Translations under genes and position numbers: made by a program
NCBI GenBank assembly: GCA_951406725.2
Contig: OX597822.1
Coordinates: 47,120,001-47,184,000 of the forward strand
DNA: 64,000 bases
Direction of reading: 5' to 3'
Source of the DNA: Octopus vulgaris
Taxonomy: Eukaryota
Notes under the pieces: model-generated
What the model was told of the DNA's origin: nothing
What the model saw: the letters and a program-made list of their open reading frames with translations, nothing else
Database searches by the model: none
In this document: positions 32,438-63,229 of the stretch, one piece after another
Layout of the letters: each line of letters opens with the position of its first letter
Position numbering within the stretch: position 1 is the stretch's first letter

Positions 32438-33186
32438 TATGCTTCAACACACGAACTCATATAAAGAATCTTGCAAACCAAATACAAAAACGAAATATAT
32501 ATATATATATATATAATACAAACTGGGACAAGAACGCATAACATTTAGAAGACGATACAAAAAACACGGACGGGACATTCGAAGCCTTCAATCTTCAGTC
32601 AAGAACCGGATCATCCTCGCAATTTCGGCTGATTAATCTTGAGATTGCTCCAATCTGGCCAGCCCCAAGGAAAAACTAAGGTAAGCGCATTAGATTCCTT
32701 GGAAAAAAGCTTCGAATGCATACGAAACAAGGACGGAAAACGGACGATGTTACACGAATATGAATACAAAAATAAGGACGGAAAACGGACATATATAAAA
32801 TACACTTTAATTGAAATAAAGATTCCCCAAAATTAAACATATCTAATATAATGTAAATGTCAGTGAGTCATATTTTTTCAACTTTAATAAATCCTTTCTT
32901 CTGGAAGCACAAGGCCTCAAATTTTGGGGGTAGAGATCAAGTCGATTACATCAACCCTAGCACGTAACTGATACTAATTTTATCAACACCAAGTGGCTTA
33001 GTGCATAAAAACCTGGATTACGATAAATTTTATACATAAATATAAGAGAGTAACCACCATGTGGTCTACTCTAGCACTAAAAATAGATCCGCTAGGTTTC
33101 AGCCACAAAAAATTGTTTCCGATGAAAGTTAGCACGACTACTAGCGCAAACGAACAGGGCAAATAAACATAACAAAAATGCAGATT

Positions 33187-33265
33187 AGTTCAGGACAATT
33201 GTTTCGCTATTAATAAATTATGTAATTTTACTCACATAACATATCTGTAGCTCTTCAGCCGAACC
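33187..33265 (-). ncRNA. Type I hammerhead ribozyme (mirror copy of 33564-33642)
   Basis: Exact reverse complement of the plus-strand copy. Confidence 0.85.
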
Positions 33266-33563
33266 CGTCCAGAATACAATTTACCCGACCGCACGCTAGA
33301 TTTCACCATAATGATAAACACACGTGCGGCCCAGTCGATTGCATTCGCTGTTATAATTTCAAGTGCCCCTGCCATAGCCCGCCAAAATTCACAGAAACAG
33401 ATACTACATCCAAAATTAAATGTAGTATCTGTTTCTGTGAATTTTGGCGGGCTATGGCAGGGGCACTTGAAATTATAACAGCGAATGCAATCGACTGGGC
33501 CGCACGTGTGTTTATCATTATGGTGAAATCTAGCGTGCGGTCGGGTAAATTGTATTCTGGACG

Positions 33564-33642
33564 GGTTCGGCTGAAGAGCTACAGATATGTTATGTGAGTA
33601 AAATTACATAATTTATTAATAGCGAAACAATTGTCCTGAACT
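33564..33642 (+). ncRNA. Type I hammerhead ribozyme, canonical core
   Basis: Stem I GGTTCGG/CTGAACT, CTGAAGA(33571), stem II GCTA...TAGC with inner TTATGTGA/TTACATAA, GAAA(33624), palindromic stem III ACAATTGT, GUC site (after 33635). Confidence 0.85.
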
Positions 33643-33893
33643 AATCTGCATTTTTGTTATGTTTATTTGCCCTGTTCGTTTGCGCTAGTAGTCGTGCTAA
33701 CTTTCATCGGAAACAATTTTTTGTGGCTGAAACCTAGCGGATCTATTTTTAGTGCTAGAGTAGACCACATGGTGGTTACTCTCTTATATTTATGAATAAA
33801 ATTTATCGTAATCCAGGTTTTTATGCACTAAGCCACTTTGTGTTAAATGGATGTACTATTAAATTAGTATCCAATTTTCTCACCCTTATTAGT

Positions 33894-33960
<67 letters not shown>

Positions 33961-35988
33961 CTGCTTGCTTAGCCAGCGGGGTGGCGTCATTTGAAGGCTA
34001 AATCAATGCGAAGCGCATTGTGACCAGCGATGTGTAGCAACATCTGATAGCCTGGTCTGTCACGTGATCACGTGATATATATATATATATATATATATTC
34101 ATATATACGACGGGCTCCTTTCAGTTGCCGTCTACCAAATCCACTCACAAGGCTTTGGTCAGCCCGAGGCTATAGTAGAAGACACTTGCCCAAGGTGCCA
34201 AGCAGTGGGACTGAACCCGGAACCATGTAGCTCGTAAGCAAGCTACTTACCACACAGCCACAATATCAATAGGCATTTAAGGTTTCTACCATACACACCA
34301 CAATAACTTTCTACCAGTTGTATTAGATGAAAAATTTTCCCTTTGTTTCTCTCTTCTGTCACGAATGCTTTAATTCCTCGACGAGCTCACATTGTTTTGC
34401 ATTCCTCTTGCTTCTCTATCTGCGTCACCTAATTCTTTTTTACCCGTTCCTTACCATACTATAGATATTCCAGTCTCTCCGGACTTTGTGCCAGTTGTCT
34501 AACTTCTCCAAACCTTTTATTCATGGTGTACTGCGTGGTTTTCCAACTTTTTTTTTACAGAATTGGCTTCGTTTTTCTTTTCCTTTTTTTTTACTTCATA
34601 TATCAGTGTTGATTTCTAATTAGATTTTCTCCAATTTTTCTATTATTTTTCTGTTATTCCTCTTCTCTCCCTGAACTGGCATCCTTTCTCTCCTTTTTGC
34701 TTCGCTTGTTCATTTTTTTGTGTTTTCTTTTTCTTCCCTCGGTTTATGCGCTTTACATTCCGACACGTGTACATATCACTATTGCATCCATCTCTCCCCT
34801 CTGCGTACTTCACTAATTTTCTTCCTTCACATGTTTGTACTAGTGTTGAATTGTAATTATTCTTTCTCCAATTTTCTCTTCTTCTTTCACTTCTTTTCTC
34901 ACCCTCAACTCCTTCCTTTCTCCTTTCACTTCGCTTTTCCATTCCTTCCTTCCATGTACTTGCATCTCATACCCATACCCTTGCGCACACTTCCATCACA
35001 CATTCTACGATTCTCTTGCTTTCCCTTTTACCTCATACTCGTTCCCGCTCCTGTTTCTTCACTCTCACGTTTTCCTCACACACAATATGATTACTAGAGT
35101 TATGACTCTTACACAACCTAATAATCCTATACTTTAATTCCACGAATAATTTTATAAAAATCAGGAAACTAACATTTATTTTGCTTTATTTGAACAAAAC
35201 GTCACCCCCAACTTAAGAAATTGATCACCAATTTTGACCCAAAACGTGCAAAATTCTAGCGGTGTTGGGGTTCACAACGCCTGCTCAAGTTTTCACCAAA
35301 CGTGATGTGCTGACTCAATGCAATACAGAAACAGTACATCTGAAATTTCAGCTTTCTAGTTGAAGTAGTTTCAGAGTTAGAGGCTTTTGAAACTATAATC
35401 ACTAGATGGCACTAGATCCACACTTCAGTATTTCTGCTGCCTAAATCCTTGTAAACGCAAGAGAGATGCATAATAAAAGTGTACTTATACATTTTTAAGA
35501 TTACTGAATTGAAATTGCCGTATGCAAAGGTTCAAAACTAGGTTATTTTAAGACAGAGGCTACTACAAGCATTCGATAATATAGAAAATTTAAAGCAATA
35601 CATATTTTCAACTTTATAGGTCTAATTCCAATTTTAAATAACTGTACAAGAAAAAGGTTGCTGAATGTTAGCAAATTTTTAAACATAACAAAGAGTTAAT
35701 GCTTTGTCAGATAAAATAAATCGAAGCTGAAGTTTCTCCTTCTTTTTACAAACATCATAAAGATCTTGAAGGCACTTGACTTCCCGTTCTGCACTCTGAT
35801 TTGAGCTGAGAATTTCCAGTTTTAATGATTCTCAACACCAAAAGTTTTTTTTTACAGAGTTCAATGCTGTTTTATGAACTTGCAGGCTACCACATAACTT
35901 CTGATAATCATGTGCATTGAACATTTGCTCAGTAAACCAAAAATCTGTTCAGCTATAAGAAATGAATCGACAAATATTGAAAAGCAAA

Positions 35989-36293
35989 ACTCTTGAACTC
36001 TCTCTCCAAAGTTCTTTTCAACTTTCCCTCGCGATACTTGTCGGCTATCGGACTCGTCCCCGTATTTAGCCTTGGATGGAGCTTACCACCCGCTTTGGGC
36101 TGCGTTCCCAAGCAACCCGACTCTCGGGCCGATGAACACCGCCGATCGCCGCCGGCTCCGAATGGGCCTGGCACCCGCTCTGGGCAGCCCCGATCGAGGG
36201 GACTCGAACCTAGCCGGGCGAAACGATCGACCGTGTACGACCCTTGCGCCACAGCTCTCGACGACCGGCGCGGCCGACGAGATTCGGCGTTGT
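35989..36293 (-). pseudogene. 28S rRNA fragment (D1 region), dispersed copy
   Basis: GC-rich island; minus strand reads CCCAAAGCGGGTGGTAAGCTCCATCCAAGGCTAAATAC...GAGGGAAAGTTGAAAAGAACTTTGGAGAGAGAGTTCAAGAGT, the conserved LSU segment. Confidence 0.93.
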
Positions 36294-36864
36294 ACTCATC
36301 TAAAATAACTGTTATTTCTTTCACAACAGTATTGGCTTTTTCCGTTTGGTAATTGGAGTGCTTCTAACTTAACTTCTCATTGTTCATTCTTTAAAACTAG
36401 CACTTGGTATTCTTGGTCATCAATACATTTACCATCAAAATGCAATTATCAGTTTTCTAAATGTAATGTTTACTTCATTTTTTAAAAAAATGTTAGCAGC
36501 TTCTTTGATAGTCAACCTGTAAATACCAGTTTCGGAAGGAGTCTTGACATTGATTCCATCTTGAGATAATTGTCGACAAACTGTTGCTGCTTTTGGGGTT
36601 GGTAACTTGGAAGATATTTCTAACTCGGTTGCAGTTAGTAATATGAAATTGTTCATTGACTTTTTGATACAGGAAATTGTTTAATTCCCAAAAAATCAAA
36701 AAGTCATAACTCATTACACATAGATACACATATACGCACACACAATACTTCATACCCTCACAACCCTACGATATAGAGAAAGGCAAGTCAGTTCAGGGTC
36801 ATCGCCTTTCGGACCAATTACTCCACGAGACTCAATGGAACTACTCAAAGCCGATTTCTATGAA

Positions 36865-37095
36865 TTAGCCTTCAGACAGCGGAAACATTTTTAAACGAAA
36901 CATTTCCCTGTGACGATTATAAGATATTATCTCTGATGTCTGCTTAAGATATAACTCCAATTGCTTCAGGATATGGAGCTTTTCAGCTTGACAAATCCTA
37001 CAATTCCGTGACATGTTAAAGTATGGCATGACTCTATCAATGTTGTTCCATGTTATTGGAAAGCATGACAATCTTTTGGCTTCCAGGTTAATCAT
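36865..37095 (-). mobile_element. Penelope-like element, C-terminal GIY-YIG endonuclease tail remnant
   Basis: ITWNNIDRVMPY...NCRICQAEKLHIL...LKQTSEIISYNRHREMFRL resembles the PLE motif W.I....PY...C.LC..EK..I...LN.RSE..S.CRH...F.L. Confidence 0.7.
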
Positions 37096-38296
37096 AACAG
37101 AGATGATAATTGATACCAGTGGAAGTATTGCTGTCAGTGACAGTGGTGGAGATGCTGGTATTTCTGTCGCTGCTATTGTTGTTATATCAGCCCTAATCGT
37201 ACAGATCTATGATCGAAGGTGTTTCAACAAGTTTTATTGATCCAGATATAATTGGTCAAGAATTACAATATCCAGTGCGTCCCTTTTTTTTAAAAAAAAA
37301 CGGTAGATGTGACTGCTGTTTTTAGCAGGCCCAATGTTGTTGTTGCTTGTGATGATTTTGGTGGTGGCGGCGGCGGCGGCGGTGGTGGTGGTGGTGGTGG
37401 CGACGGCGGTGGTGGTGGTGATAGTGGTATGAGTGTTGCCATGATGGTGGTGGTGGTGGTGGTGGTTTTAATGTTGGTGATGTTATTGATGGAAGAGTAA
37501 CTATTAGTGCGTGTGAGGGTGTAATTATTGTTGTCGTTGTTACTCAAACTTGACCGATCAGGAATATGATTAAAAGCATTCCTACTATGACCATCACCCT
37601 TTAATTCCAAAAATTGTATAACTCAAAACTACATTATCCAATGTGTACATTTAAAAGATAGTAGTGTGCTGGGGGGAGGGATATATGACTGTCCGGGATA
37701 TGTGACTGTTTTGTCTAGCTGGTTCAGCGGCCACATAATGAGCGACTCCTTCATTAGTTCATGTTGTTGTTGTTGTCCTTCCATCATAGATTTTCTCTAG
37801 CTGAGTTAATCTATGATGGAAGGAATTCCAGTCATGACCATCCCGTTTTTATTCCAGCAAGTTCTGCTCGACATTATGCAGTGTGTCCTTTTATAAGACA
37901 ATAGGGTGTGATTTGGGGGAGAGCTGTTTGTTAGCAAATACATGAATAAGTATTCCAATCGTAACTATTCCGCTTTTTTTTTTGTCGTGGTAGATACAGT
38001 TATAGTATTTGATGGTATTAAACGACGCACGGACATATTAGATGTACCCCAAGTCCAGCAGAACATATTCAGGAAAAAAAACAAAAAAAAAAAAAGATTT
38101 AGAGCATTAAAGCTCGTAGCACTTAAAGCAGGAAAGGGCAAGCTGTTTCGAGAAGCGGGCTGTATGAGACGTGTTTTATAATCAGGCGGGCTGCACTACT
38201 AGAAACATATAGGATAGTTTCATTAGGCGCGTCATTCAGGAAGTCCGCGGGCTGCAGTTTGCTCATCCACGATTGATTTAAAGCAATTTTGCAGTA

Positions 38297-38528
38297 AGGC
38301 GACGAGCTGGCAGAAACGTTAGCACGCCGGGTGAAATGTTTAGCTGTATTTCGTCTGCTGCTAGGTTCTGAGTTCAAGTTCCGCCGAGGACGACTTTGCT
38401 TTTCATCCTTGCGGGGTCGATAAATTAAGTACCAGTTACGCACTGCGGTCGTTGTAGTCGACTTAATCCCTTTGTCTGTCCTTGTTTGTCCCCTCTATGT
38501 TTAGCCTCTTGTAGGCAATAAAGAAATG
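38297..38528 (+). mobile_element. SINE family B, full length
   Basis: Match to 21650, 56975 and 59526. Confidence 0.9.
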
Positions 38529-38857
38529 ACAATAGTTAGTACATCATGCGAAATGCTTAACGGCATTTCGTCTGTCCTTACGTTCTGAGTTCAAATCCCA
38601 CTGAGGTTGACTTTGCCTTCCATCCTTTTCGGGGTCGATAAAATAAGCACCAGTTGAACACTGAAGTCGATGTAATTAATTTATACCCACCCCGGACTTG
38701 CTGGCCTTGAGCCAAAATTTAAAACTAATACTGGTGTTTGTTGTCGTTGGGTCACATATTAATACTGTACGAGCTGCTGTTTTATTATTGTTTCACATTA
38801 TTTTCCCGCTCCTTCTCTGTTTCTATGATTACGTTTTCATAGGCACAGACACACAGA

Positions 38858-39230
38858 GGCGCAAGAGCAGCTTTGTGGTAAGTAGCTTGCTTACGAACTA
38901 CATGGTTCCGGGTTCAAGTCCCACTGCGTGGCACCTTGGGCAAGAGTCTTCTACTATAGCCTCGGGCCGACCAAATCCTTGTGAGTGGAATTGGCAGACG
39001 TATGTGTGTGTGTGTGTATTTGTGCGTCTGCTTTTGTCCCCACCCCAACATCACTTGACAACCGATGCTGGTGTGTTTACGTCCCTGTAACTTAGCGGTT
39101 CGGCAAAAGCGACTGATAGAAATAAGTACTGGGCTTACAAAGAATAAGTCCTGGGGTCGATTTGCTCGACTAAAGGCGTTGCTCCAGCATGGCCGCAGTC
39201 AAAATGACTGAAACAAGTAAAAGAGTAACA
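38858..39230 (+). mobile_element. SINE family A copy
   Basis: Match to other copies. Confidence 0.85.
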
Positions 39231-39281
39231 GAGAGAGTATCTCACACCAAATACAACCTAAACTACCTGATACACACATAC

Positions 39282-39318
<37 letters not shown>

Positions 39319-39672: not shown

Positions 39673-39730
<58 letters not shown>

Positions 39731-40658
39731 TCTTTCTCTTTCCTCTCTGTACATTTAACTTTTCTGCCTGCCTTAAAATCTTAGCCTTTCTCTTTGCTTG
39801 TCTGTTGAAGACAGACAAAATAATAATACATAACTTCTGCCACTCCCAACGTAAAACGCCATTACCTCTTGCTGTTGGTGCTGCTGCTGCACTTTCATTC
39901 ATAACTTTCACTCAATGAAAATATATATCGCCGGTTGGCAGTGTGGAAGAAGGAGAGAGAGAGAAAGAGAGAAAGAGAGAGAGAAAGAGACGAAGAGGGT
40001 GAGGGTGGAGACAAGGAAAATACCATAAGAGAAAGAGGAGGCAGTGAAAGAAAAGAAAGAAAAAAAGACAAAGGAAGAAAAGAAGGAAGGAAAGAGAAGA
40101 GACAGACAACAGGAACAAAGAAAAAAGAGAGAAACAAAGAATGGAAGAAAGAAAGAAGAGAGAAACAAAGAAATAAACAAACAAAGAAGAAGGGAAGAAA
40201 GAAAAGGATTCTCGAAAAAGAGAGAGGAAGAAAGAAAAAGACAAGAATAAAAGAAAAAAAAAACGAAAGATGTAAAGAAAGGATGCGATCTGGAAATAAC
40301 GGATTATTAAATACTAATTTGTAAAGAAAGATGGAATGGGAAGCTGTGGGGTTAATGCTTTTCCCTTCCTGAAGATGCTCTAAGGAGAGATTGTGAGTGG
40401 TAAGAAGTTTGCTTGCTAACCATAAGGTGCTGGGTTCAGTACCACTGCGTGGCACCTTGGGCAAGTATCTTCTGATATAGCTTCGGGCCGAACAAAACGT
40501 TGTGAGAGGATTTGGTTGATGGAAACTGAAAGAAGCCCGTCGTATGTGTGTTTGTGTGTGTGTATGTGTGTGTGTGCCTGTGTGTGTGTGTGTGTGTGTA
40601 TTATATAAATCCGGTAAAACTTAGAGCATGCTTCTTTTTCGGATTAAAGTTTTACCGA

Positions 40659-40698
<40 letters not shown>

Positions 40699-40849
40699 CA
40701 TAAGGGACTAAAGCCATCTGAATATGGCTAGGGACAGGGCAGGGTGGTGGGGGTGTTACTGTTGCATTTAGCCCCAGGCGAACATCGACGTCACCAGATA
40801 GGCCCGACACCGTCACGGTGTCCTTTAACCTGCAAAGGGAGGTAATTCC

Positions 40850-40933
40850 CCGATGAAGCGGAAACCACACACGGACCATGGTTTCAAGGTGTATTGCCCA
40901 TCGTCGGCGTGTGGTAGGCTTCCGCTTCCTCGA
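40850..40933 (-). ncRNA. Hammerhead motif (mirror of 41133-41216)
   Basis: Exact reverse complement. Confidence 0.7.
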
Positions 40934-41132
40934 CGAACACTCACTCTGCAGGATATTCATATATAGATTTTCAAGCAAAATACATTTGCTGATTTAGTCC
41001 CTTATGTTATCGAGCAGTTACTGTCTATATCTCTTTTAGAGAATTATTATTGCTTTCGAACAGATTTTCGAAATCAGCAAATGTATTTTGCTTGAAAATC
41101 TATATATGAATATCCTGCAGAGTGAGTGTTCG

Positions 41133-41216
41133 TCGAGGAAGCGGAAGCCTACCACACGCCGACGATGGGCAATACACCTTGAAACCATGGTCCGTGTGTG
41201 GTTTCCGCTTCATCGG
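41133..41216 (+). ncRNA. Type I hammerhead motif with U4C core variant
   Basis: Long stem I (GAAGCGGAA..ACCACACG / CGTGTGTGGTTTCCGCTTC), CCGACGA(41159), weak stem II TGGG/CCTT, GAAA(41181), palindromic stem III ACCATGGT, GUC site (after 41192). Confidence 0.7.
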
Positions 41217-41412
41217 GGAATTACCTCCCTTTGCAGGTTAAAGGACACCGTGACGGTGTCGGGCCTATCTGGTGACGTCGATGTTCGCCTGGGGCTAAAT
41301 GCAACAGTAACACCCCCACCACCCTGCCTGTCCCTAGCCATATTCAGATGGCTTTAGTCCCTTATGTTATCGAGCAGTTACTGTCTATATCTCTTTTAGA
41401 GAATTATTATTG

Positions 41413-41448
<36 letters not shown>

Positions 41449-41534
41449 TCGGTAAGTGTATATATGTGTGTGTGTGTGTGTGTATATATACACATATATA
41501 CATATATATAGAGAGATAAATAAATAGAATATTC

Positions 41535-42417: not shown

Positions 42418-42471
<54 letters not shown>

Positions 42472-42822
42472 CAATAATAATTCTCTAAAAGAGATATAGA
42501 CAGTAACTGCTCGATAACATAGGGACTAAAGCCATCTGAATATGGCTAACAAATCCACATTGGGCTTTGGTCGGCCCGATGCTATACGTAGAAAACACTT
42601 CTTGCCCAAGGTGCCGTGCAGTTGGACTGAACCCGGAACCATGTGATTGGGAAGGGAATTTCTTAGCAGACAGCTACACAGCCACTCCTGCGCCTGATTT
42701 TAGAAACAGAAATGATAGTGAAAGGAGGGGTGAAATGGCATTGAAGTTAATAGGTTACAGTAAAGTATTGATGAGATTAACTGAACAATATCATATAAAC
42801 GCAGTCGTGGCTGTATGTTAAG

Positions 42823-47631: not shown

Positions 47632-48477
47632 CTAGCAGAATTGCCCGGCGTTGCTCGGGGCTGAATTGCTTGAAAGTACTGTTAATGATTGCACTGAATT
47701 ATGATGATTATTCAGGCAAATATTGATATAAGTTTACGGTGGGAGATAAGGACTTAACGATCAAACGTGTGCCATTGCATTGTTTTGGGGGAACCAAATT
47801 TCTGATGAGCATTATAGGGGCACCAACTTTAAGTTTGAGAAAGTGTGGTGGTAGTCCGGGGTGCTGAAAGGAATTGAGTACCTCTATTGGATAGTTGATG
47901 ACGTCCTCTGGGTCAGGAGTTGTATCGATAGACTGATATACATAGACTTCCCCAGGAATGAGTTTTAGCATTTCATCATTAATATGGTGAACAGTTTTAT
48001 TCCTCGGGGCCAGTATAGCCTTTTTGCCAATCCAATCCATATTCTGATAATTAGCTTGTAGATCTGAGAACACTGCATCTCTGAGATCAGAAGGCGTCTT
48101 AACAATGGTACAAATGGAATCGATGGCAATATTACCATTTTCATCCCCTGGTATTTTGCCTTCGCCAAGTGCAAGGAGGATGTGAGGAAATGCTGCTGAT
48201 GTGATATTACGTCGCATATGAGCACGCATATTGGTGTGAAGTTTGAGAGTTACTACCCTTTATTAAAAAAAATATGCATTAAAATGGAAAAAAATGATGG
48301 TAAATTATTTGTAAAATCATCGACTCATCGTAGACGCGCGCTAATACCCAGAAGGGCTCGATATGAATCACGACTATAAGATACCCTGTTTTGGTTAAAC
48401 TGCATCGCAAAATGTGGGAGTAGTTAGGAATCTAAATTGGAGTAGACAGACACACAACCTTTCTTTTATATATAAAT
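47632..48477 (-). mobile_element. Non-autonomous Helitron carrying a PIF1-like helicase fragment
   Basis: 3' end CCCGAGCAACGCCGGG hairpin + CTAG|T; ORF 47708-48229 KAILAPRN...GLPPHFLKLKVGAPIMLIRNL...CNGTRL is the Helitron/PIF1 motif. Confidence 0.92.
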
Positions 48478-49152
48478 ATTTTCGTCCTAAAAAACTTTGT
48501 ATGGATTGAATGGTTACCTCTATGGAAATATATACACGCACATTATACATACATGTGTGTATAGATGAATATATAAATACATTTAAATATCTATATACAC
48601 TTTTGGGCGATCTTTCTGTTTCTTAGAGATAACTTTAGATCTTATTTTCGTCCAAAAAAACTTTATATGGAGTGAATGGTTACCTCTATGGAAATATATA
48701 CACACACGTTATACATGCATGTGTGCATAGATGAATATATAAATACATTTATATATCTATATACACTTTTGGGCGATCTTTGTGCTACTTAGAGATAACT
48801 TTAGATTTATTTTCGTCCTAAAAAACTTTGTGCGGAGTGAATGGTTACGTCTATAGAAATATATACACACACGTTATACATACATCTGTGTATAGATGAA
48901 TATATAAATACATTTAAATATCTATATACACTTTTGGGCGATCTTTCTGCTACTTGTATATACTTTAGATCTTATATTCGTCCTAAAAACTTTGTATGGA
49001 GTGAAAGGTTACCTCTATGGAAATATATACACAAACATTATACATACATCTGTGTATAGATGAATATATAAATACATTTAAATATCTATATACACTTTTG
49101 GTCGATCTTTCTGCTACTTGGATATAGGTCTTATATTCGTCGTAAAAAACTT
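48478..49152. repeat. Minisatellite, ~165-bp unit, about 4 copies
   Basis: TATTTTCGTCCTAAAAAACTTTG... recurs at ~48478, 48643, 48808, 48974 and 49133. Confidence 0.92.
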
Positions 49153-49334
49153 TCCTGTCACACACTCACGCACACGCACACACACACACACACACACACG
49201 CACCCTAACACACACGCGCACACACACCCACACACGCACGTTAGCTTACAATTTTATTTATATATTTGCGTGTCAATGTGTGGAAAGAGGAAGTGGGAGG
49301 CAGAGTGAAAGAATCACTCACTACAGTAAGTCAA

Positions 49335-49603
49335 TTACTTTCATTTTATTCGTTGCCCACTGTGTGTGTACGTTTGCGTGTGGTGTAAACCAGACTAAGA
49401 AAAGCATTTGACACACACACCAGAATGTGAGTTTTCTGTAAATTTTGCTTAATTGGAGTTTAAATTTTAAAAACTGGACCTGGCATGACGCGATGCATTG
49501 TACTCTCAAAAATGCTAGGTAAATTGTAATTGAAGAAATCCTATATTGTAGATTTGTATAACTCCCAAAGGGAGGCAGATAAAATCTGCCTTTTATAATA
49601 AGA
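49335..49603 (-). mobile_element. Probable Helitron 5' terminal segment; near-identical copy at 51120-51388
   Basis: Minus strand starts TCTTATTATAAAAGGCAGATTTTATCTGCC; ~270-bp direct repeat. Confidence 0.6.
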
Positions 49604-50966: not shown

Positions 50967-51385
50967 TGAGTGTATGTTTACTTTATTACTAATTACTCTC
51001 TTCCAAGAACATTTTCACTCACTCTTAGCTCTTAGCTTCCCATACATTTTACTCATGTGTCTATCTGCGTCATAGACAGAATACTTTCACTTTAGTCTTC
51101 CTCAAATCACTGTCGCTATTTACTTTCATTTTATTCGTTGCCCACTGTGTGTGTGCGTTTGCGTGTGGTGTAAACCAGACTAAGAAAAGCATTTGACACA
51201 CACACCAGAATGTGAGTTTTCTGTAAATTTTGCTTAATTGGAGTTTAAATTTTAAAAACTGGACCTGGCATGACGCGATGCATTGTACTCTCAAAAATGG
51301 TAGGTAAATTGTAATTGAAGAAATCCTATATTGTAGATTTGTATAACTCCCAAAGGGAGGCAGATAAAATCTGCCTTTTATAATA

Positions 51386-51426
<41 letters not shown>

Positions 51427-52210
51427 CCCCCTCCCCCGTTTGTTTATCCAATTTTAAACCCTGCACGACTTCTATATACTTTGTCTTTCCTACCCGCCAT
51501 TGCTTCTTTACCAAACTATTTTGGCGCCCTCCGATTCTTCCCCCTCTTCCTCCCATCCTCCTCAATCCCTTCTTTCTCCTTTTCTCTTGGTCACTGATTC
51601 TGTCCCCTGCCTTCCACCCTCTTTGATTCCCTCTCTCTCTGTCTCTCTTTCTCTCTCTCTCCTGCAACCTGCTGCTTCTTAACCATTCTGTTGGCGATCG
51701 TATCTCGACCAACATGTGTCCCCTCTACCGAAAAGGTAATTATTTCTACGCCAGCTGCTATGTTGTTGTTGTTTTTGTCTCATTTGGTCTAAAGTCGTAA
51801 GACAACCACCGTTATATTTTGTTTATCCATTACTGTTTTCAATTTCGTTTTCGTCTCTTGTATTTACATCCGTCTCTTGCGTTTACATTCTTGTCTTCTA
51901 CCAAGAAATCTAATGCTTACAGCTTAGTTTTTGGGGGGGCTGGCCGAGTTGGAGCAAATATCAGAATTGAACAGCCGAAATTTGCTATGATGATTCGGTG
52001 TCTGACTGAAGATTGAAGGCTTCGAATGATTTGTCTGTGTTCCGTGTTCGTCCCTTCCTGTTTCTCACGTTCTTTATATATAAAAACATTTATTCTTATA
52101 TATATATATACTTGAGTAGTTGAATGAATTATCTTATTAAAGATAATTCGAAAGATAACCGATACCTGGGTAGCAAATTCATATCAGACATTTTTGATGT
52201 CGACGTAAGT

Positions 52211-52307
52211 TCCTTGATTTTCCTGAAGAGAAATCTGCATAATGTACTCCTTATTCCTTCGGAATTAGGAATATGCAGCCTTCGAAACATATGTCGAGAA
52301 TAAAGGA
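52211..52307 (+). ncRNA. Type I hammerhead ribozyme, canonical core, in a ~240-bp element (52111-52350) inside (TA)n
   Basis: Stem I TCCTTGATTTTC/GAGAATAAAGGA (11 of 12 pairs), CTGAAGA(52223), stem II GAA..CTGCATA/TATGCAG..TTC, GAAA(52284), palindromic stem III ACATATGT, GUC site (after 52295). Confidence 0.88.
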
Positions 52308-52347
52308 TATTTGTTAACTAGTCGTTCAACTCCATACTTTCATATAC

Positions 52348-53560: not shown

Positions 53561-53710
53561 TATGTAGTATGTTTTTATTTTTTACGGAGATGTACTCGCA
53601 TAGCAAGTGATTTGATCTGAGATCGTGTGCTGGACGAAAACAATTGCAGCGTGTAAGCCATTTAAGAAACACACAAAAGCCGTTCGATTCACTTCAACAT
53701 TTGAGTTTAA

Positions 53711-53760
53711 TTTGCCAGAATATTTTCGTCGCTAAAATCCGCGACCTGTTCACTGACAAA
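53711..53760 (-). ncRNA. Hammerhead motif with G3-C8 core, UUC site
   Basis: TTTGTCA-GTGAACA-G-GTCGC/GCGAC-GAAA-ATAT-TC-TGGCAAA. Confidence 0.7.
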
Positions 53761-53782
53761 AATCCGAGATGCAGCACGGATT

Positions 53783-53832
53783 TTTGTCAGTGAACAGGTC
53801 GCGGATTTTAGCGACGAAAATATTTTGACAAA
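53783..53832 (+). ncRNA. Hammerhead motif with G3-C8 core
   Basis: Stem I TTTGTCA/TGACAAA, core GTGAACA+G, stem II GTCGC/GCGAC, GAAA, palindromic AATATT, UUU site. Confidence 0.7.
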
Positions 53833-54827
53833 TTAAACTTAAATGTTGAAGTGAATCGAACGGCTTTTGTGTGTTTCTTAAATGGCTTACAAACACCTTC
53901 CACGCTGCAATTGTTTTTATTTTTGTATGCAATATAAATTAACCAAATAGAAGTACATGTATGAATTGCTAATTTAACGGTAAATGCCACAATAAATATT
54001 ATAGATAAATTTCTTTATATATATATATTAAGCACATGTATTAATGTTAATTTATGGGTAAATATGTAACTGTAAATACCTTGCAATCTTGCAACTGCTG
54101 CGATAATTGTTAACTTGTAATTGAACAGTAAATGAAACCTTTCCTGAGCTGTATAACCTTTCCATCGGATTGCACTGGGAGATGAGACTAACAGGTGGTA
54201 ACCGACAACGAGAAGCATAAGAGCTTTTAAGAGTGGATTATGAGGCTTTTGCCCCAAACAAACTAAACGGATGCACACACGCACACACACACACACACAG
54301 TGTATTATGTATGCGTGTGTGCGTGTTTGTGTTTGTCTCCCACTGATGCTTGACAACCGGTGTTGGCTTGTTTATATCCCTTAACTTAGCGGGTCCGCAT
54401 TAGAAGCCGGTAGAATATGTATCACTCTTTGACCTTAAAGGTGGTGCTCCAGCATGGCCACATTCCAATGACTGAAAGAATTCAAAGGTGAACCTTCATG
54501 AAATAAATTAATATGGTGAGTTTTACCAGAAACGTTAGACTTATTATTCAATGAAACGTAGAGAAGGCACTTTATTGATGAGGTCACGAATGGTGACGAT
54601 AGGACTATGAGAGACCTAGCTGATTGATTGATTGACCGAACGATTGGTCAAACAATCAATTATCTACATTGTTAACCGATTAACAAATAACGAAGTGAAA
54701 TAGAACCAGTGCGTGTGTTATTTTTGGCATACTGACCCTCTCAAGATACAACCTAAAATGGTAGACCTTGCCTGAATTTTGGGCCTGCTTCCTATCAAAT
54801 CTCGGTTATCGGGTAGCCCAAACGTGA

Positions 54828-55516: not shown

Positions 55517-55742
55517 TAAAAATAATATATTACTGTTACTATCATCTTTGATCTTTTACTTGTTTCAGTCATTTGGATTGCGGCCATGCTGGAGCCTTAC
55601 TTTGAAGGGTTTAGTCAAACAAATCTACTTTAGTAGATTTTTTAAAGTCTGGTACATACTCTTATTTTATCCGTCTCTTTTGCTAAGTTATGGGACGTAA
55701 ACAAACCAACATCGGTTGTCAAACAGAAAGACGTCACAACAG

Positions 55743-55794
<52 letters not shown>

Positions 55795-56447
55795 TGAACA
55801 GGCTTCCACGGGGCTATAGTAGAAGACATCTTCCCAAAGATACCATATAGCGGGACTGAACCCGAAATCACGTCGTTGCAAAACGAGCTTTTTAACAGTG
55901 CATGCAGCCACTCCTGCGTCTATTTCATATTTTGTTAACAGTAATCAAAAACGAATTTGAATTATTAAAGAGCAACATGTCTATAAAGAAAAAGTTGCCT
56001 CAAAGGAGTGTTGTCGCCACTGGTACAAAGATCCTGTCTGTTGTTGACAGTCACCAAAAGCACCACGTGATAGTTAGACGGTCAGTCGGGTCGGTTTACT
56101 AGATTTTGTTTCAGTCTGTCACTTTAAACTGTGTCAAAATAATTTTAACTCATAAAAATGAGTGATATACGCCAAAGGATTTGAAAGGGCAGTAAACATC
56201 AATGGTGTCGTCATTCACTCTCCGACTTAGTTCTGTGAATGTATGTTTGTTACGAGTCATCAAGTTTGTTTTTCTTACTATAACAATTGTGTAAACACAA
56301 AGGTACCTTCCATTGACTATCAGACAGAAAAGGCAAGATTTTTACAGCGTATGAATCGTGATAAAAAGATAGTGAAGATTGCTAAAATGCACGTCAACGA
56401 TTGATTGACATAAATCTCAGAAAGCAGGTTTTCTGTTTTTTCTTTTC

Positions 56448-56478
<31 letters not shown>

Positions 56479-56575
56479 TAATTGCGTTTAATGTGGATTC
56501 CTTTCTTTACGACTTGTAAATACAAACAGAAAGTGGAAATACATCTATGGAAATTCGTCGCGTAAGTTAGATTTT

Positions 56576-56773
56576 TTAAAAAAAGGAGCATAAACGCATC
56601 GGTACTGAACGAACCATTGCCATGCACTTTATAAATGGAACAAATGGTAGATTTATTGGCACCAAACTCGCGTTCCATAAACTTCCACGGTTAGGTATTT
56701 TCTTGATCATCTCTAACTTTTCCTGCAGAGAATACACTTGTCTGCATTGTTTATTAGAATCGGGCGGTTTCAT
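56576..56773 (-). mobile_element. Pogo/Tigger-like transposase N-terminal HTH-psq remnant
   Basis: RQVYSLQEKLEMIKKI.. then, frameshifted, REFGANKSTICSIYK. Confidence 0.55.
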
Positions 56774-56972
56774 ATTTTTGTCTATTCACTGGTTCCATGT
56801 TGATTGGTATAAGTTCGGAAATTCGAATAGAATAAACTCAACTTCGCAGCACAGTGATGTAAACACCAGCGATTGTCAGTGCATTTTGAGCAGCTGAGAA
56901 CTGTGCCTGATCTTTGGGGTTGTATCTCAAAACGTTGGCAGGTCCGGGGCTATAATAGAAAACGTTTGTCCA

Positions 56973-57415
56973 GGGCGAGCTGGCAGAAACGTTAGCACGC
57001 CAGGCGAAATGGCGGAATCGTTAGCACGCCAGGCAAAATGCTTAGCGGTATTTCGTCTGCGTTACGTTGTGAGTTCAAATTCCGCCGAGGTCGACTTTGC
57101 CTTTCATCCTTTCGGGGTCGATAAATTAAGTACCAGTTACGCACTGGGGTCGATGTAATCGACTTAATACCTATGTCTGTCCTTGTTTGTCCCCTCTGTG
57201 TTTAGCCCCTTGTGGGTAATAAAGAAATAGGTATTTCGTCTACTGTTACTTTCCGAGTTCAAATTCCGCCGAGGTCGACTTTGCCTTTCATCCTTTCGGG
57301 GTCGATAAATTAAGTACCAGTTACGCACTGGGATCGATGTAATCGACTTAATCCTTTTGTCTGTCCTTGTTTGTCCCCTCTATGTTTAGCTCCTCGTGGG
57401 CAATAAAGAAATAAG
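56973..57415 (+). mobile_element. SINE family B tandem dimer, inserted in a minus-strand family A head
   Basis: Two consecutive bodies; flanks AAACGTTTGTCCAGG and AAATATTTGTCCAAGG resemble a target duplication. Confidence 0.85.
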
Positions 57416-58431
57416 AAAATATTTGTCCAAGGTTCCGCGCAGTAGGACAAAACATGATACCACATCATTGACAGGCGTGTCTCTTCACTACACAGCCATA
57501 TTTGCGTCTACAACTCTTCAAAAATTTTATTTCCTAAAATCTTTAAGCCAATAAATGACTTGTATTTTCAAATGGCACCACTTCCTCTGTTGTCACCATT
57601 TTCTTCTTCCTTTCTCATCGCTTTAAGACATTTTCGTTTCTACCATGTCATTGTCTTGTCACTTGGTCCTTGACTACCTTTCGAAGAGACCATCTTGTTG
57701 CAAGCATTTGGGCCAAATTTCCGGTTTAAGAATATCTTCCTTCCTCTTTCACGTGCATCTCGGAAGCCCTGTATAGGGACACAGGTACTTCTTTCTGACT
57801 ATGGGATAAAGGGGGTGGGCATGCGGAAAACTCTAAAATTCTAACATACAAGCAAAATCTCTATACAAGGCACTGGCAACCTTTATCGAGAAGTAGGATG
57901 CACGAGGCATGGATCATTGTTGAGCAGACCACATTACTACAAAATTTCAAGGTTTTTTTCGTTAGGCATGCCATTCATAAATTTCGTGCACCGCATCTTT
58001 CCAATCAATGCTCTGCACACTTTGTACCAATCACTTAATCAAGTAAGCAATGTGAACGAACAAAAAGAATTAGTAATTTTATTATTACACATGCAGTGTG
58101 GTTAAAAGCCCGCTTTGCAACCATTTGGTTTCTGGTTCAGTTCCACTGAGCAGCACCTTCGGCAATGTCTTCTATAGCCCCGGTACAGCCAATGCATTAT
58201 GAATAAATTTAGTAGACAGAGACACGACGTGTGTGTATGTGTGTGTGTGAGTGTGTGTGTTTGTGTGAGATATGTGTGCGTGTGTGTGTGTGTGTGTGTG
58301 TGGTGTGATGTGTGTGACTGTTCGTCACTACCACTCGGTGTAGGTTCGTTCACGTCCCCATCAATTAGCGGTTCCGTAAAAGAGAACGACAGAATACATA
58401 CCAGATTTGACGGAAACTGCGGAAACTCGAC

Positions 58432-58491
<60 letters not shown>

Positions 58492-59332
58492 CTTTGTGTT
58501 CGTCACCACCACTGGACAATCGGTGTAGGTTTGTTCACGTCCCCATCAATTAGCGGTTCCGTAAAAGAGAACGATAGTAACCAGATTTCAAAAAGAAGCA
58601 ATGAAATTGATTTGTTCGACTAAAGCCTTTAAAACTGTGCTCCAGCAATGACACAGTCCAATGAAAAAACAAACAAAAAATAAAAGAGGATTAAACATGT
58701 GAATTTTATAACCTAGGGCAACCGTAAAGGCAGGACAACAGACTCACCCCGCACTCCCGTCGTCGATATTTCATCATCAAAACCAACTCACGTTTTCCAC
58801 TCTCTCCGTACCTTGACCTTGTTCCTCAACTCCCTTCTTTGTGTTTTTTTTTTATCGCTTTTACTAACAGCTTCTCCATGCTCGGCCCTATTCGCAACAG
58901 TTAGGCTATCAAGGTGTTGTGTTGCATGACAAAACCACTTTATTTTCCGCTGTTTAATGATTGACAGAAGAGCTTTCTGATTTGCAGTCTTCCCAACGAC
59001 AATTTTATTACATAATATTACAAATATATACAACGTTTGCAATTTCCTTGTTTCCCTTTACTGCATCACGTTCGTCAATGAATAACTGACTTTCTTCCAT
59101 TAACAGTTTTATTGATTCAACGTGGTCCTCTGAAACTGTATATAAGTGTGATCATACATCAAGATAAGGAGATCAGTTTTCCATCAGTGTTTATAGGATT
59201 TGATTTATCACTGTGTTTGTGTTTCTTCCTCACCAATCCATCTTCCTGTGGCTATTCACCGGATCGATCCGAAGCGTGTTAGTGAAAACGGGTAGACTGA
59301 AGCTGTGTGGAAGCGCCGCGCCTGTACGTGTC

Positions 59333-59406
<74 letters not shown>

Positions 59407-59525
59407 GTGTGCAGCTTATGTTTATGTAATAGTTTGCGTGGTATCTTGAGCAAGTGTCATTTATTATAGCCATAGCTCGACCCACGTGTAGATGGAAACA
59501 CTGTGTGTGTGTGTGCGCGCGCGCA

Positions 59526-59940
59526 AGGCGGCGAGCTGGCAGAATCGTTAGCACGCCGGGCGAGATGCTTAGCGGTATTTCGTCTGCGTTACGTTCTGAG
59601 TTCAAATTCTGCCGATGTCGACTTTGCTTTTCATCCTTTCGGGGTCGATTAAATAAGTACCAGTTACGCACTGGGGTCGATGTAATCGACTTAATCCGTG
59701 TGTCTGTCCTTATCTGTCCCCTCTGTGTTCAGCCCCTTGTGGGTAGTAAAGAAATAGGTATTTCGTCTGCCGCTACGTTCTGAGTTCAAATTCCGCCGAG
59801 GTCGATTTTGCCTTTCATCCTTTCGGGGTCGATTAAATAAGTACCAGTTACGCAGTGGGGTCGATATAATCTACTTAATCCGTTTGTCTGTCTTTGTTCG
59901 TCCCCTATGTGTGTAACCCTTGTGGGCAGTAAAGAAATAA
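59526..59940 (+). mobile_element. SINE family B tandem dimer
   Basis: Same dimer junction (AAAGAAATAGGTATTTCGTC) as 57220-57240. Confidence 0.88.
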
Positions 59941-60187
59941 GGAAACACTGCGCGTGTGAGAGCGTGCAGGACCACCGCCGCCACCACCGTTTGGCAACAG
60001 GTGTTGGTTTGTTTCTGTCCTCATAATTTAGCGGTTCGGCAAAAAGAGAGCGCATAGAATAGGTATTAGATTTTAAGGATAAGCACTAAGATCAAGCCGT
60101 TTGACTAAACTTTTCAGAGCGGTGCCCCAGCATGGCCGCACTCCAATAACTGAAACAAGTAAAAGAATAAAAGATAGAATATTTTTT

Positions 60188-61384
60188 CGGTAATCTTTCA
60201 GTTTAGGGTGTTTAAAAAGTAAATAAAAATAGAAGGGGCAATAACGAGGGGGAATAAATAAGTCAACTGTCAAAACAATGTAGACATTGGCTCTAGCCAT
60301 TAAAAAGTGAACGAAAGTCTTTTTGGTACTTTTTGGTTATCTCACCCCCATTAAAAAAATTGGGTTATTACCCCCACCCCGTTTTACGAGAAATATCGGT
60401 ACTTTTGGTTATCCAACTGCAAAAAATGTTTAACCCTCAATAAAAAAAAAAAAAAGAAATGATGCGCAGGAGTGGCTGTGTAGTAAATAGCTTGCTTACC
60501 AACCACATGGTTTCGGGTTCAGTCCCACCGCGTGGCACCTTGGGCAAGTGTCTTCTACTATAGCCTCGGGTCGACCAAAGCTTTGGTCGACGGAAACTGA
60601 AAGAAACCCGTCGTATATATGTATATATATATGTGTGTCTGTGTTTGTGTGTCTGTGTTGGTCCCCCCCCCCACATCGCTTGACAACCGATACTGGTGTG
60701 TTACGTCCCCGTAACTTAGCGGTTCGGCAAAATAGACCGATAGAATAAGTACTAGGCTTACAAAGAATAAGTCCTGATGTCGATTTGCTCGACTAAAGGC
60801 GGTGCTCCAGCATGGCCGCTGTCAAATGATTGAAACGAGTAAAAGAGTAAAAGAGTAAACATGGAAACTGCAAAAAATTAATAAGCATGGAAATTGAAAA
60901 AAATTAAGCATCTTACTCAGTTTGATAACATTTTAATAACAAATCATACCCTGCCTATTGAAGAGACCAAACGTCAACCATATGTTGAAGTATTGAATCA
61001 AAAAGATCTCTTTTAATCCAATCTCTTGTCGCCACATTAACTAAATTTTTTAGTGGGGAGATAACCCAATTTTTTAATGGCAATCTTTTAATGGGGATGA
61101 GGTAACAAAAAAAAAAAAAAATACCGTCTTTATTTTTTGGGAACAGAATTCTTCTATGTGAATTCGTTTGAATATGACACAAATATATTGTCCGACGTTC
61201 CAAATTGTCGCCGTAATTTTATTTTCACCCGCAAATTCTCCACATTTGCTCCACATTTTGCGTGTAGACGTCCTCATTTGTGGGATCCACAAAGTTCTCC
61301 TGGTGCACAATCCCTTCGTGAGTATAGATGTCGTCATTTAGGCTTTATTTACTTTTTTGAACACCCTAAACTGAAAGATTACCG
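60188..61384. mobile_element. Triple nest: outer MITE (TIR CGGTAATCTTTCAGTTTAGGGTGTT), inner MITE 60326-61110, family A SINE 60463-60858
   Basis: Outer TIRs at 60188-60228 and 61345-61384; inner element is homologous to 22054-22514. Confidence 0.82.
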
Positions 61385-62204
61385 ATTTTAAAAATGTAAT
61401 CCTTTTTATTAAGGTTGTTCGGCAAAAGAGACCGATAGAATAAGTAGCACTTCAAAAATAAGGTTGAGTCTATTTATTCGACTAAACTTTTCAAGGTGGT
61501 GCCCCAGCATGGCCGCGATCTTATGAGTGAAACAAAAGAGAAAAGATATACCATCATCGTCTAGTCTAGGTTCCTCAGACATTTCTAACTCGCCTACGCC
61601 ATCCATCTCGACCCTGCATTGGTTGAGTGAGATCTTCGGAGATGTATCTTGTGTTTCTGGTGAGTTGACCTTACTATGTTGTGTTCGGACGACCTACTCG
61701 AGAACGGCCAGCTTTTGTTTAGCTCGCCAGCGATGACCCGCTTGCGCTTTGCGGGGGCATTAATATACATCTCAAGCATATTTGAACTAGTAACAGGTTT
61801 TTATTTGCACACATCACTGCTTAGAGCTGTCACCCCGTATTTGCGGTGAGCCGTTAAATAGTGCAACCAGTTATTGAGCAATGACGGAATATTATAAGAG
61901 GGGGCCTGTCTCTCGAGTCACTTCGTGGCGTCTAAGTCTCCGGTCTCTACAGCTGAAGAGGAGATAACCACTTCGAAAAGCATGCACCCAACAATCTGGT
62001 TATTGGGTAATGCGAAATGGTTCGATGTGTTTATATCTTTCTGTTTACAGCTAAAAATTTTCTCCATGAAAAAACTACAGTGAATGCGTTTTTTTATGAG
62101 TTCAAATGAGCCGGAAGCATGTGCGAACTGGTAACAAGTTTTGTGTATGTGAGAGTGAGTGAGCGCTCGTGTACATGTTTGTGTAACAGTGTATATGTTT
62201 GTGA

Positions 62205-62284
<80 letters not shown>

Positions 62285-62872
62285 GTGAGTGAGCGTGCGC
62301 CTGATTTTGTGAAGAGGTGTATATAAAATATAATCTTACCCTTTGAATAATATACGTATAAATAAATGCATGGACACATCCCACAAAAGTATATTTGTGT
62401 GTATATATATGGATATACATATATATATATATGCGTGCGTGTGTGTGTGTACATATACATATATATAAATTTGCGTATGCGTGTATGAATGGTTATATAT
62501 ATATATATATATATACATATATATATGTGTGTATATATATATATAAATATTTGTGTGTGTCTGTCTTTGGTGGATGTCTTTACCACTTCAAAGGGATTAA
62601 TACCCGCCAATTACAGCACTGTAATGAAACACCGTTCACTTGTTCACTGAGCTGCCCACCACCACCAACACCACCACCAGACGTAAATGTATGGAAGGAC
62701 ACAGACTTCCCCCTCTGTTCTGACGCTTTTGTTTCCTCGTCTTCTTTTTTAGTCTCTTTCTCTTTTACTTCTTTTCCCTCGTCATATTCTCCACCCCAAC
62801 TTCTTTACTTCTCTCCTGGAGCATAATGAATCCACCACCACCACCACCACCACTACCACTACCACCACCACC

Positions 62873-62904
<32 letters not shown>

Positions 62905-62921
62905 CACCACCACCACCACCA

Positions 62922-62958
<37 letters not shown>

Positions 62959-62963
<5 letters not shown>

Positions 62964-63229
62964 TGCAGCGTGGAAGGTGTTTGTAAGCTATTTAAGAAAC
63001 ACACAAAAGCCGTTCGATTCACTTCAACAGCACGGATTTTTGTCAGTGAACAGGTCGCGGATTTTAGCGACGAAAATATTTTGACAAATTAAACTTAAAT
63101 GTTGAAGTGAATCGAACGGCTTTTGTGTGTTTCTTAAATGGCTTACAAACACCTTCCACGCTGCAATTGTTTTCGTTTCAGCACATGATCTCAGATCAAA
63201 TTACTTGCTATGCGAGTACATCTCCGTAA
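62959..63229 (+). mobile_element. G3-C8 HHR element in (TA)n, with a truncated inverted copy at its 5' side; HHR motif at 63039-63088
   Basis: HHR identical to 53783-53832; 62959-63029 is the reverse complement of ~63100-63170. Confidence 0.85.

Follow-up and report, generated by a model that had tools for sequence, protein, structure and literature searches.

Four head-to-head palindromes lie within a 64,000-nucleotide stretch of the Octopus vulgaris genome (contig OX597822.1; the whole stretch analyzed is called the window), and they raise the question of what kind of element left them and how two opposed arms came to be joined in each. Self-BLAST and sequence inspection found a head-to-head structure at every site where the original prediction had placed one, beginning at 32991, 40695, 53582 and 62959 (loci 1 to 4). 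The proposed grouping into three families also stands: loci 3 and 4 form one family (C), and this is unlike both family A (locus 1) and family B (locus 2), with no similarity among the three above shuffled scores. As described, the long arm adjoins (TA)n at loci 1, 2 and 4 and such a tract is absent at locus 3. The short arm stops at a constant position, lacks the "tail" of Penelope-like elements (PLEs), and likewise adjoins (TA)n at loci 2 and 4. All four palindromes are PLE retro-insertions, including non-coding parasites of PLEs.

At locus 1, arms of 425 bp each (32985-33409 and 33420-33844) carry 2 mismatches and are separated by a 10-bp spacer. Its features are as follows:

32985..33419, minus strand: family A inverted arm plus 10-nt central loop, ending at unit position ~452
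33187..33265, minus strand: the family A hammerhead motif in the inverted arm (pattern scan)
33410..33419, minus strand: the 10-bp spacer, part of the left arm, formed by the loop of an 8-9-bp hairpin that the element itself has close to the unit start
33420..33895, plus strand: family A forward arm, positions ~10-502 of the 502-bp non-coding unit, reaching the long 3' end
33564..33642, plus strand: type I hammerhead motif with canonical C3:G8 core, predicted cut after 33635
33799..33895, plus strand: family A tail, ~96-102 nt, spanning from the short fixed 3' end to the long one
33896..33957, no strand: (TA)n target tract

The inverted arm here runs past the usual short end (~400-406), has no (TA)n, and abuts a truncated copy of another repeat. 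By pattern scan, the motif at 33564..33642 has a 7-bp stem I and a palindromic stem III. Locus 2 contains family B, and a further solo fragment of the family lies nearby:

40661..40697, no strand: (TA)n left of the locus
40695..40995, minus strand: family B inverted arm, unit positions 17-316, stopping at the short fixed end
40868..40913, minus strand: the inverted arm's hammerhead motif, a U4C core variant (pattern scan)
40993..41054, plus strand: 5'-truncated tandem copy, unit positions 299-360, a pseudo-LTR-forming partial tandem that overlaps the inverted arm by 3 nt
41055..41414, plus strand: complete 360-bp family B unit, reaching the long fixed end
41153..41198, plus strand: type I hammerhead motif, U4C core variant, with weak stem II and palindromic stem III, predicted cut after 41192
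41371..41414, plus strand: family B tail, 44 nt
41415..41446, no strand: (TA)n right of the locus
42470..42548, minus strand: solo 5'-truncated family B fragment, unit positions 281-360, adjoining (TA)n

The two family C loci are shorter, with core arms of 115 bp, 3 mismatches and a 10-bp spacer at locus 3:

53570..53581, plus strand: 12-bp target-site duplication (TSD), left copy, locus 3
53582..53766, minus strand: long-end arm with tail and an 11-bp deletion
53711-53760, minus strand: mirror copy of the G3:C8 hammerhead motif
53767..53911, plus strand: short-end arm, its first 10 nt being the "spacer"
53783..53832, plus strand: hammerhead motif in which the core pair is swapped to G3:C8 and a base ahead of stem II is unpaired
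53912..53923, plus strand: 12-bp TSD, right copy, locus 3
62921..62958, no strand: (TA)n left of locus 4
62959..63029, minus strand: short-end inverted arm, reference positions 72-142
63029..63229, plus strand: long-end arm, the last 201 bp of an autonomous PLE
63039..63088, plus strand: hammerhead motif having a G3:C8 core pair, predicted to be cut after 63081
63172..63229, plus strand: family C tail, ~56-58 nt
63230..63241, no strand: (TA)n right of locus 4

These details revise the picture of a full copy paired with a truncated one, since the long arm is a partial tandem (62 bp + 360 bp) at locus 2 and, at loci 3 and 4, covers only the final ~200 bp of an element longer than 3.7 kb. TSDs had been expected to be absent, whereas locus 3 is flanked by the duplication 53570-53581 / 53912-53923. 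Because the short-end arm of locus 3 owns the 10-nt "spacer", it extends further 5' than the long-end arm.

The pattern scan identified a type I hammerhead motif in 7 of the 8 arms of the window, the short-end arm of locus 4 being too short to contain it, and returned 10 matches in the window versus 0-1 in 10 shuffles. Family C departs from the canonical core by having its 3:8 pair swapped, as G3:C8. Minimum-energy folding recovered both stem I and stem II in family C and stem I in family A, and gave an alternative fold for B. No hammerhead appeared among the 150 of 279 Rfam matches listed for the window, which are mostly sub-threshold microRNA matches to microsatellites. For natural G3:C8 hammerheads, our literature search, whose coverage did not extend to a 2017 paper that reportedly treats PLE hammerhead variants, turned up an engineered variant only.

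Judged on its sequence, family C makes up the final ~200 bp at the 3' end of an autonomous EN+ PLE. The window segment is 97.5-98% identical to the 3' ends of three other copies, L251 and L253 (long end) and L252 (short end), where it forms the element terminus and is followed by (TA)n; L251 has a single 28-bp tandem piece upstream. RT/GIY-YIG-type open frames span 839 codons in L253 and 1025 codons in L252. Their protein family is collinear with the Pfam-confirmed RT+GIY-YIG protein of locus L121 in this genome, with RT, thumb and GIY-YIG aligned (hhalign 98.8%, BLASTP 2e-10), and RT and EN motifs are visible in the alignment. A Pfam search of the family C ORF itself gave no RT and no GIY-YIG match, the same search on five homologues gave weak matches in two, and a PDB search with the protein profile gave weak RT matches only. 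A linker and CCHH-like residues, as in the CX2-5CxxC linker and CCHH motif of the Neptune and Nematis clades, are visible in the alignment, and membership in either clade is putative. The prediction of Penelope-type retro-insertions rather than MITEs is supported, and for family C this physical linkage to an RT/GIY-YIG-type ORF bears it out.

Copy counts beyond the window describe a sample, the best 40 candidates per search having been scored, and are not a census. Families A and B are non-coding units of 502 and 360 bp (GC 37% and 47%; longest ATG frames 83 and 35 aa), with a head-to-tail junction at 27 of 39 sampled A loci and 40 of 40 B loci. At least two complete units occur at 14/40 B loci, in arrays of up to 9 consecutive complete units, and the hammerhead core is kept in 109 of 112 B units; by strict count, family A has partial tandems only. 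The size range used for retrozymes is ~170-450 bp, with the B unit inside it and the A unit above it, yet within 51-972 bp, and both families otherwise have non-LTR retrozyme features (non-coding tandems, GC <50%, one type I hammerhead per unit). By sequence, A and B are therefore non-LTR retrozymes with putative self-cleavage and putative circular RNA. Contigs of presumed-RNA runs contain family B and C sequence, as contigs that show neither expression, strand, nor circles. Families A and B would borrow a PLE protein in trans. No partner PLE for them was found at 30 GIY-YIG, 4 extended and 30 ORF loci, which sample part of the genome's PLE families, and around 177 A, B and B-related loci the search for ORF-linked copies met only neighboring, non-contiguous PLE fragments. 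One candidate partner for B, at L124, resembles the B tail over 45 bp (80%) at a point 1.5 kb past a PLE ORF; it was rejected because its PLE ends ~800 bp earlier and the matching stretch is part of a sister tandem family that has no ORF.

An inverted arm was found in 41/69 A, 32/40 B and 27/41 C loci of the sample, and each family has two fixed ends, separated by tails of 44 (B), ~57 (C) and ~100 nt (A). The exact 10-bp spacer, real at loci 1 and 3, does not hold as a family feature: it recurs in 1/20 A, 0/32 B and 1/27 C two-armed loci, both cases being the window's own, while sampled spacers range from 0 to 376 bp over 79 loci (1 A and 2 C loci gave none). Both window 10-mers belong to the element and occur in just one of the arms, and a 10-bp rule (2/79) was rejected as chance. 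TSDs of 10-16 bp, with 1 mismatch allowed, flank 15/20 family C sites outside TA tracts, again in place of the predicted lack of TSDs, and 10/12 of the two-armed ones, compared with 8% of shuffled pairings; in A and B they are not measurable because insertions lie nearly always in TA tracts. Within one TSD, both outer ends are fixed 3' ends. Short C copies also have a sharp 5' boundary, which may be an RNA end. Such variable TSDs favor retro-insertion. MITEs, or fold-back DNA transposons with long terminal inverted repeats, could offer long near-perfect inverted repeats without an ORF and with TA flanks, but fixed symmetric termini, a fixed internal part and a fixed-length TSD were each looked for and none was found. 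Instead, the arms are unequal and polar, one-armed and tandem copies are common, TSD length varies over 10-16 bp, and family C runs into an RT/GIY-YIG-type ORF; the variable centers and the RT linkage refute this reading, to which we give next to no probability.

The two ends are combined by a strict rule. Among 87 two-armed insertions with both ends typed (sample), 86 pair a short with a long end (A 31, B 29, C 21, longer C inserts 5), the sole exception is one family C long+long, and short+short was not found; 18 further of the 105 two-armed loci have an atypical end and stand outside the typed set. Segregating minor alleles are common to both arms at 0.85/0.84/0.46 (A/B/C) versus 0.10/0.17/0.20 between loci, a level reached in 0/500 permutations, and the arms diverge by 0.5-3.7%, depending on family. 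Gene conversion between arms could also yield shared alleles. Two independent insertions, or two different RNAs, placed back to back in one TA tract would accord with the strong (TA)n preference and with family C arms having only 24/52 segregating alleles in common. The 86/87 pairing, the single TSD round both arms, the absence of target DNA between them, and allele sharing well above permutation in all three families leave this explanation exceedingly improbable and already largely refuted. Later DNA-level events or assembly artifacts (fold-back reads, replication template switch) are a possibility at locus 32991, whose left end resembles a secondary deletion; as a general origin they are very improbable, since artifacts do not produce short ends that are fixed, TSDs that surround both arms, or mutations acquired independently by each arm.

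The original prediction attributed all palindromes to a single fold-back or template-switch mechanism, in which a strand folds back and copies itself; to yield the present ends, the endonuclease would later trim the arms at the short and long sites. Published proposals run this way, namely self-priming on an antisense template (Arkhipova 2013, PMC3846280) and endonuclease resolution of the tail (PMC8557442), and alleles common to both arms speak for it, as do a 1-nt spacer at L050 and family A offsets of at most 15 nt in 5/31 loci versus ~2 expected. Yet loops reach hundreds of bases, junction offsets are scattered across the whole unit, and 34 of 79 sampled junctions have no overlap at all (overlap of 1-11 nt in 45, blunt 13, extra bases 21). 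In 23/86 insertions (13/31 A, 4/29 B, 3/21 C, 3/5 longer C) neither arm could have been copied from its partner, so that the template must have been longer than either; in three of the five longer C inserts, the short-end arm reaches 561-871 nt further 5' (our reading of the alignment). The outer ends are both joined to a staggered TSD, which twin priming accounts for without an integrase, and the tail ends match RT start sites in vitro (PMC11167929). Fold-back is thus not the best reading and, as a general route, we consider it unlikely. Locus 32991 alone fits it, being joined at the element's own hairpin with a 28-nt overlap and near-identical arms, and may be a true fold-back exception.

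Two further observations concern arm containment. Formally, in 53 of the 81 short+long loci of the short-unit sets the short arm could still have been copied from the long one, in part an effect of searches that placed full-length units at the top, and a hairpin made first and later trimmed at two fixed sites would pass the containment test. Separately, the junction of locus 32991 at an internal hairpin, with 2 mismatches per 425 bp and an atypical left end, sits uneasily with twin priming.

We regard it as likely that the two arms are made by twin priming, each palindrome being a single Penelope-type retro-insertion, since arms that stop at two different fixed points suggest copying from both cut target strands at once. 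Nicks made by the element endonuclease on the two strands of an AT-rich target would lie ~10-16 bp apart, and both resulting ends would serve as primers for separate cDNAs. Synthesis of one would begin at the long fixed end and that of the other at the short one, on a shared RNA or on RNAs from one source locus; both cDNAs may well use a single RNA. The two would terminate prematurely at positions unrelated to each other and then be joined head to head through their free ends, with little or no homology. In L1 twin priming, two target strands prime two cDNAs and an inversion forms inside one TSD, with the second primer at variable internal sites and segments that hardly overlap. The second start here is instead a fixed site and the arms overlap, which produces a palindrome. 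A broader joint reading, in which one dimer on one RNA performs fixed-site twin priming so that every two-armed insertion is short+long, retrozymes take the same route, and the autonomous PLE carries a functional natural G3:C8 hammerhead, is in our judgment evenly poised between true and false.

The head-to-head architecture is already published and ordinary for PLEs, although formation of their tandem and inverted ends has been named an open question (PMC8557442); the element tables of PMC8557442, PMC4209133 and PMC7229834 and the library of PMC13282606 may hold these families already. Canonical EN+ PLEs with pLTRs (Pen2a_Av, PMC3846280; PMC8557442 Fig. 2) have the same partial tandem, inverted 5'-truncated copy, one-arm tail, TSD, terminal-repeat hammerhead and (TA)n targeting, and the same single ORF with RT then GIY-YIG as the family C parent, with its putative Neptune/Nematis-type linker. 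They differ in published tails of 30-40 nt (here 44, ~57 and ~100 nt), TSDs of 8-10 bp (here 10-16, 1 mismatch allowed) and a C3:G8 or U3:A8 hammerhead pair where family C has G3:C8. Metazoan non-LTR retrozymes (PMC7229834; 10.64898/2026.07.22.740005) resemble A and B in non-coding hammerhead units and tandem arrays, with family A differing in its mostly partial tandems. The word "inverted" is absent from PMC7229834, and the accessible text of the retrozyme papers connects them with PLEs through co-occurrence and homology of pLTRs rather than through an insertion signature. The anole PLE protein (PAc; Poseidon, Anolis) cuts both target strands in vitro and extends them, begins reverse transcription at two internal positions that are the tail ends, uses an AT-rich target and is a predicted dimer, all as proposed here (PMC11167929). 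The accessible portion of that study does not model head-to-head insertions, of which the short+long rule would be the genomic counterpart. The term "twin priming" was absent from PLE-focused papers among the matches listed in our literature search.

Such palindromes are easily mistaken for MITEs or miRNA hairpins, and a G3:C8 hammerhead slips past standard descriptors. The pairing of short with long ends, the insertions that fail the containment test and the alleles common to both arms constitute a genomic prediction that is testable in an in vitro system already available (PMC11167929). Its occurrence on non-coding hammerhead repeats makes this insertion signature insertion-level support for the mobilization of animal retrozymes by PLEs.

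All four head-to-head structures of the original prediction are present in the window sequence, where microsatellites and short repeats are abundant, within an assembly of 2.8 Gb in 227 contigs. Loci 3 and 4 belong to a single family, C, and families A, B and C have no mutual similarity above shuffled scores. In an exact-arm scan, loci 1 and 3 have 10-bp spacers.

Start 32991: locus 1, family A (non-coding tandem unit)
Start 40695: locus 2, family B (non-coding tandem unit)
Start 53582: locus 3, family C (3' terminal segment of a Penelope-like element, PLE)
Start 62959: locus 4, family C

Other repeats in the window are recorded here in their own right.

18726-19083, 38296-38676, 57003-57419, 59525-59945: partial tandems of a 184-bp repeat family, an inverted pair at the first; may be a further PLE-type or SINE family
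29339-29381: isolated U3:A8 hammerhead-like motif, with no copy among the fetched loci
32213-32440: a fifth element resembling a palindrome, following (TA)n; its long stem contains a hammerhead-like motif (U3:A8) at 32311; related sequence lies beside other fetched loci
35950-36376, minus strand: large-subunit rRNA fragment (35732-36376 in Rfam, E 3e-36), probably from a dispersed pseudogene
40650-40662, 41445-41457: inverted repeat of ~11-13 bp bracketing the TA tracts that flank locus 2, possibly the ends of an older element
48477-49153: 165-bp tandem array
49335-49603, 51120-51388: two copies of a 269-bp repeat in direct orientation (99% identity), lying 1.8 kb apart; the second copy stops at (TA)n
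52190-52345: a further short repeat end that carries a hammerhead motif (canonical core, 52223) and adjoins (TA)n; 94-97% identity to stretches in fetched loci L098 and L308

To describe the architecture, natural copies were mapped to one natural unit for each family. The first genome search gave 1646 candidates for A, 1093 for B and 866 for C; only the best 40 per family were scored, so the counts describe samples ordered by resemblance to the query. Duplicate fetches of one place were left out (L003; L033, L035, L047, L048, L054, L058, L060), as was L169 from later counts, being a probable duplicate of L165; these two share an identical family A insertion structure ~0.6 Mb apart on contig C1, probably through segmental duplication. 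Each family has two fixed 3' ends, short and long, with a tail between them: at ~400-406 and 502 of the 502-bp A unit, at 316 and 360 of the 360-bp B unit, which forms arrays of up to 9 complete units in succession, and at ~143 and 201 of the window copy of C. Insertions with two head-to-head arms account for 41 of 69 distinct A loci, 32 of 40 B loci and 27 of 41 C loci, and five longer C inserts bring the set to 105. Both ends fall at a fixed site in 87 of these, and 18 have an atypical end. Among the 87 typed insertions, 86 pair a short with a long end, one is long+long and none is short+short, a class against which the tail-containing queries are biased, as they are not against long+long.

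Spacers range from 0 to 376 bp, and the expected length of exactly 10 bp occurs solely at the window's two loci. Arm junctions (n=79) comprise 45 overlaps, 13 blunt joins and 21 with extra bases. Target-site duplications (TSDs), predicted to be absent, were found: duplications of 10-16 bp occur at 15 of 20 family C sites without a TA flank, versus 8% in shuffled pairings (maximum 25%; one mismatch and 10 nt of slack tolerated), and locus 3 has one of 12 bp. The layout found here, with a partial tandem, an inverted 5' copy, a tail and a TSD, follows the published norm for PLEs.

The palindromes had been attributed to fold-back of a single cDNA, which demands that one arm lie inside the other. 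The short-end arm is inside the long-end arm in 53 of 81 short-unit cases and the reverse holds in 8; neither contains the other at 13/31 A, 4/29 B and 3/21 C loci and in 3/5 longer C inserts, in conflict with a single fold-back cDNA. Locus 3 counts as fold-back-compatible within the tolerance of the automated scoring, but on inspection its spacer proves to be element sequence belonging to the short-end arm, and so neither arm lies within its partner. Locus 1 does suit fold-back and is its best case, with an internal-hairpin junction, 2 mismatches in 425 bp and a left end past the short site, and a hairpin with later asymmetric trimming, as described in PMC3846280 and PMC8557442, is compatible with the data. 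Segregating alleles are common to both arms far above permutation, so that the two arms either derive from a single template or source or else underwent homogenisation. Twin priming at two fixed start sites would account for the end pairing, the containment failures and the shared alleles, and agrees with the reported behaviour of an anole PLE in vitro (PMC11167929). We regard twin priming as the probable mechanism and single-cDNA fold-back as unlikely.

The assignment to a PLE-type class was right, and for family C it is shown by ORF-bearing PLE copies that terminate in its segment. The 5' extension present in copy L073, used as a query, led to the autonomous parent: extended copies cross a microsatellite-rich stretch upstream and enter a GIY-YIG-like frame. 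Three near-full-length copies (L251-L253; frames of 615 codons with one stop, 1025 and 839, respectively) terminate with the family C segment (97-98% identity), with the long or short end followed by (TA)n. Pfam gave no match to the family C ORF; its family can be aligned with L121, a protein that Pfam matches to both RT and GIY-YIG, from RT and thumb through linker to endonuclease. The head-to-head short+long layout also occurs in ORF-bearing inserts, e.g. L213 and L218, and inverted 5' arms recur in an unrelated young PLE family of this genome (3/20 loci). Most short C copies begin within ~25 nt of one point, after a branch-point/pyrimidine/AG-like motif in the parent; this point may be where the RNA begins or a splice junction. 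Within the window, tblastn with three PLE proteins found no coding remnant.

A recent octopus repeat annotation describes 31 recently active Penelope-like families and uses neither the word hammerhead nor the word retrozyme (PMC13282606). Among the loci fetched here, L124 and L126-L144 form a very young, (TA)n-targeted autonomous PLE family (40 copies scored, 99.7-100% identical to one another), whose inverted arms have an extra ~25-30 nt end at two loci; L121, L122 and L254-L280 represent two further apparently active families, in which many frames are intact (781 codons; up to 1312 codons). Families A and B fit non-LTR retrozymes as reported (PMC7229834; bioRxiv 10.64898/2026.07.22.740005), and no autonomous partner of either was found among the sampled PLE, ORF and A/B loci.

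In PLE hammerheads as described in PMC4209133, helix III is palindromic, stem II is preceded by an unpaired base, U3-A8 covariation occurs, and pairs of motifs lie on opposite strands 100-700 bp apart. A pattern scan accepting any Watson-Crick 3:8 pair located a type I motif with palindromic stem III on the sense strand of 7 of the 8 arms, with 10 matches in the window versus 0-1 in 10 shuffles; the Rfam scan of the window had no hammerhead among the matches listed. The predicted hammerhead of family A is canonical. That of B carries U4C, its stem II is weak, and the minimum-energy fold differs from a hammerhead; in a sister family of B the hammerhead fold is preserved, with a core that is canonical and a palindrome that differs. 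This sister family (L282-L310) is a tandem unit with an 80% identical tail and ~90% identity among copies, and is older than B. In family C the predicted motif has G3:C8, a pair retained by 49 of 56 units and by the autonomous copies; common variants are confined to loop II or preserve the 3:8 pair. Both U3-A8 and U4C are reported to occur naturally (PMC3088659), and an engineered double swap of the 3:8 pair reportedly restores cleavage in part (PMC11167929; PMC3884650). The palindromes are real and PLE-type, and their architecture is already known; their interest lies in the short+long rule, which can be tested, and in the G3:C8 motif.
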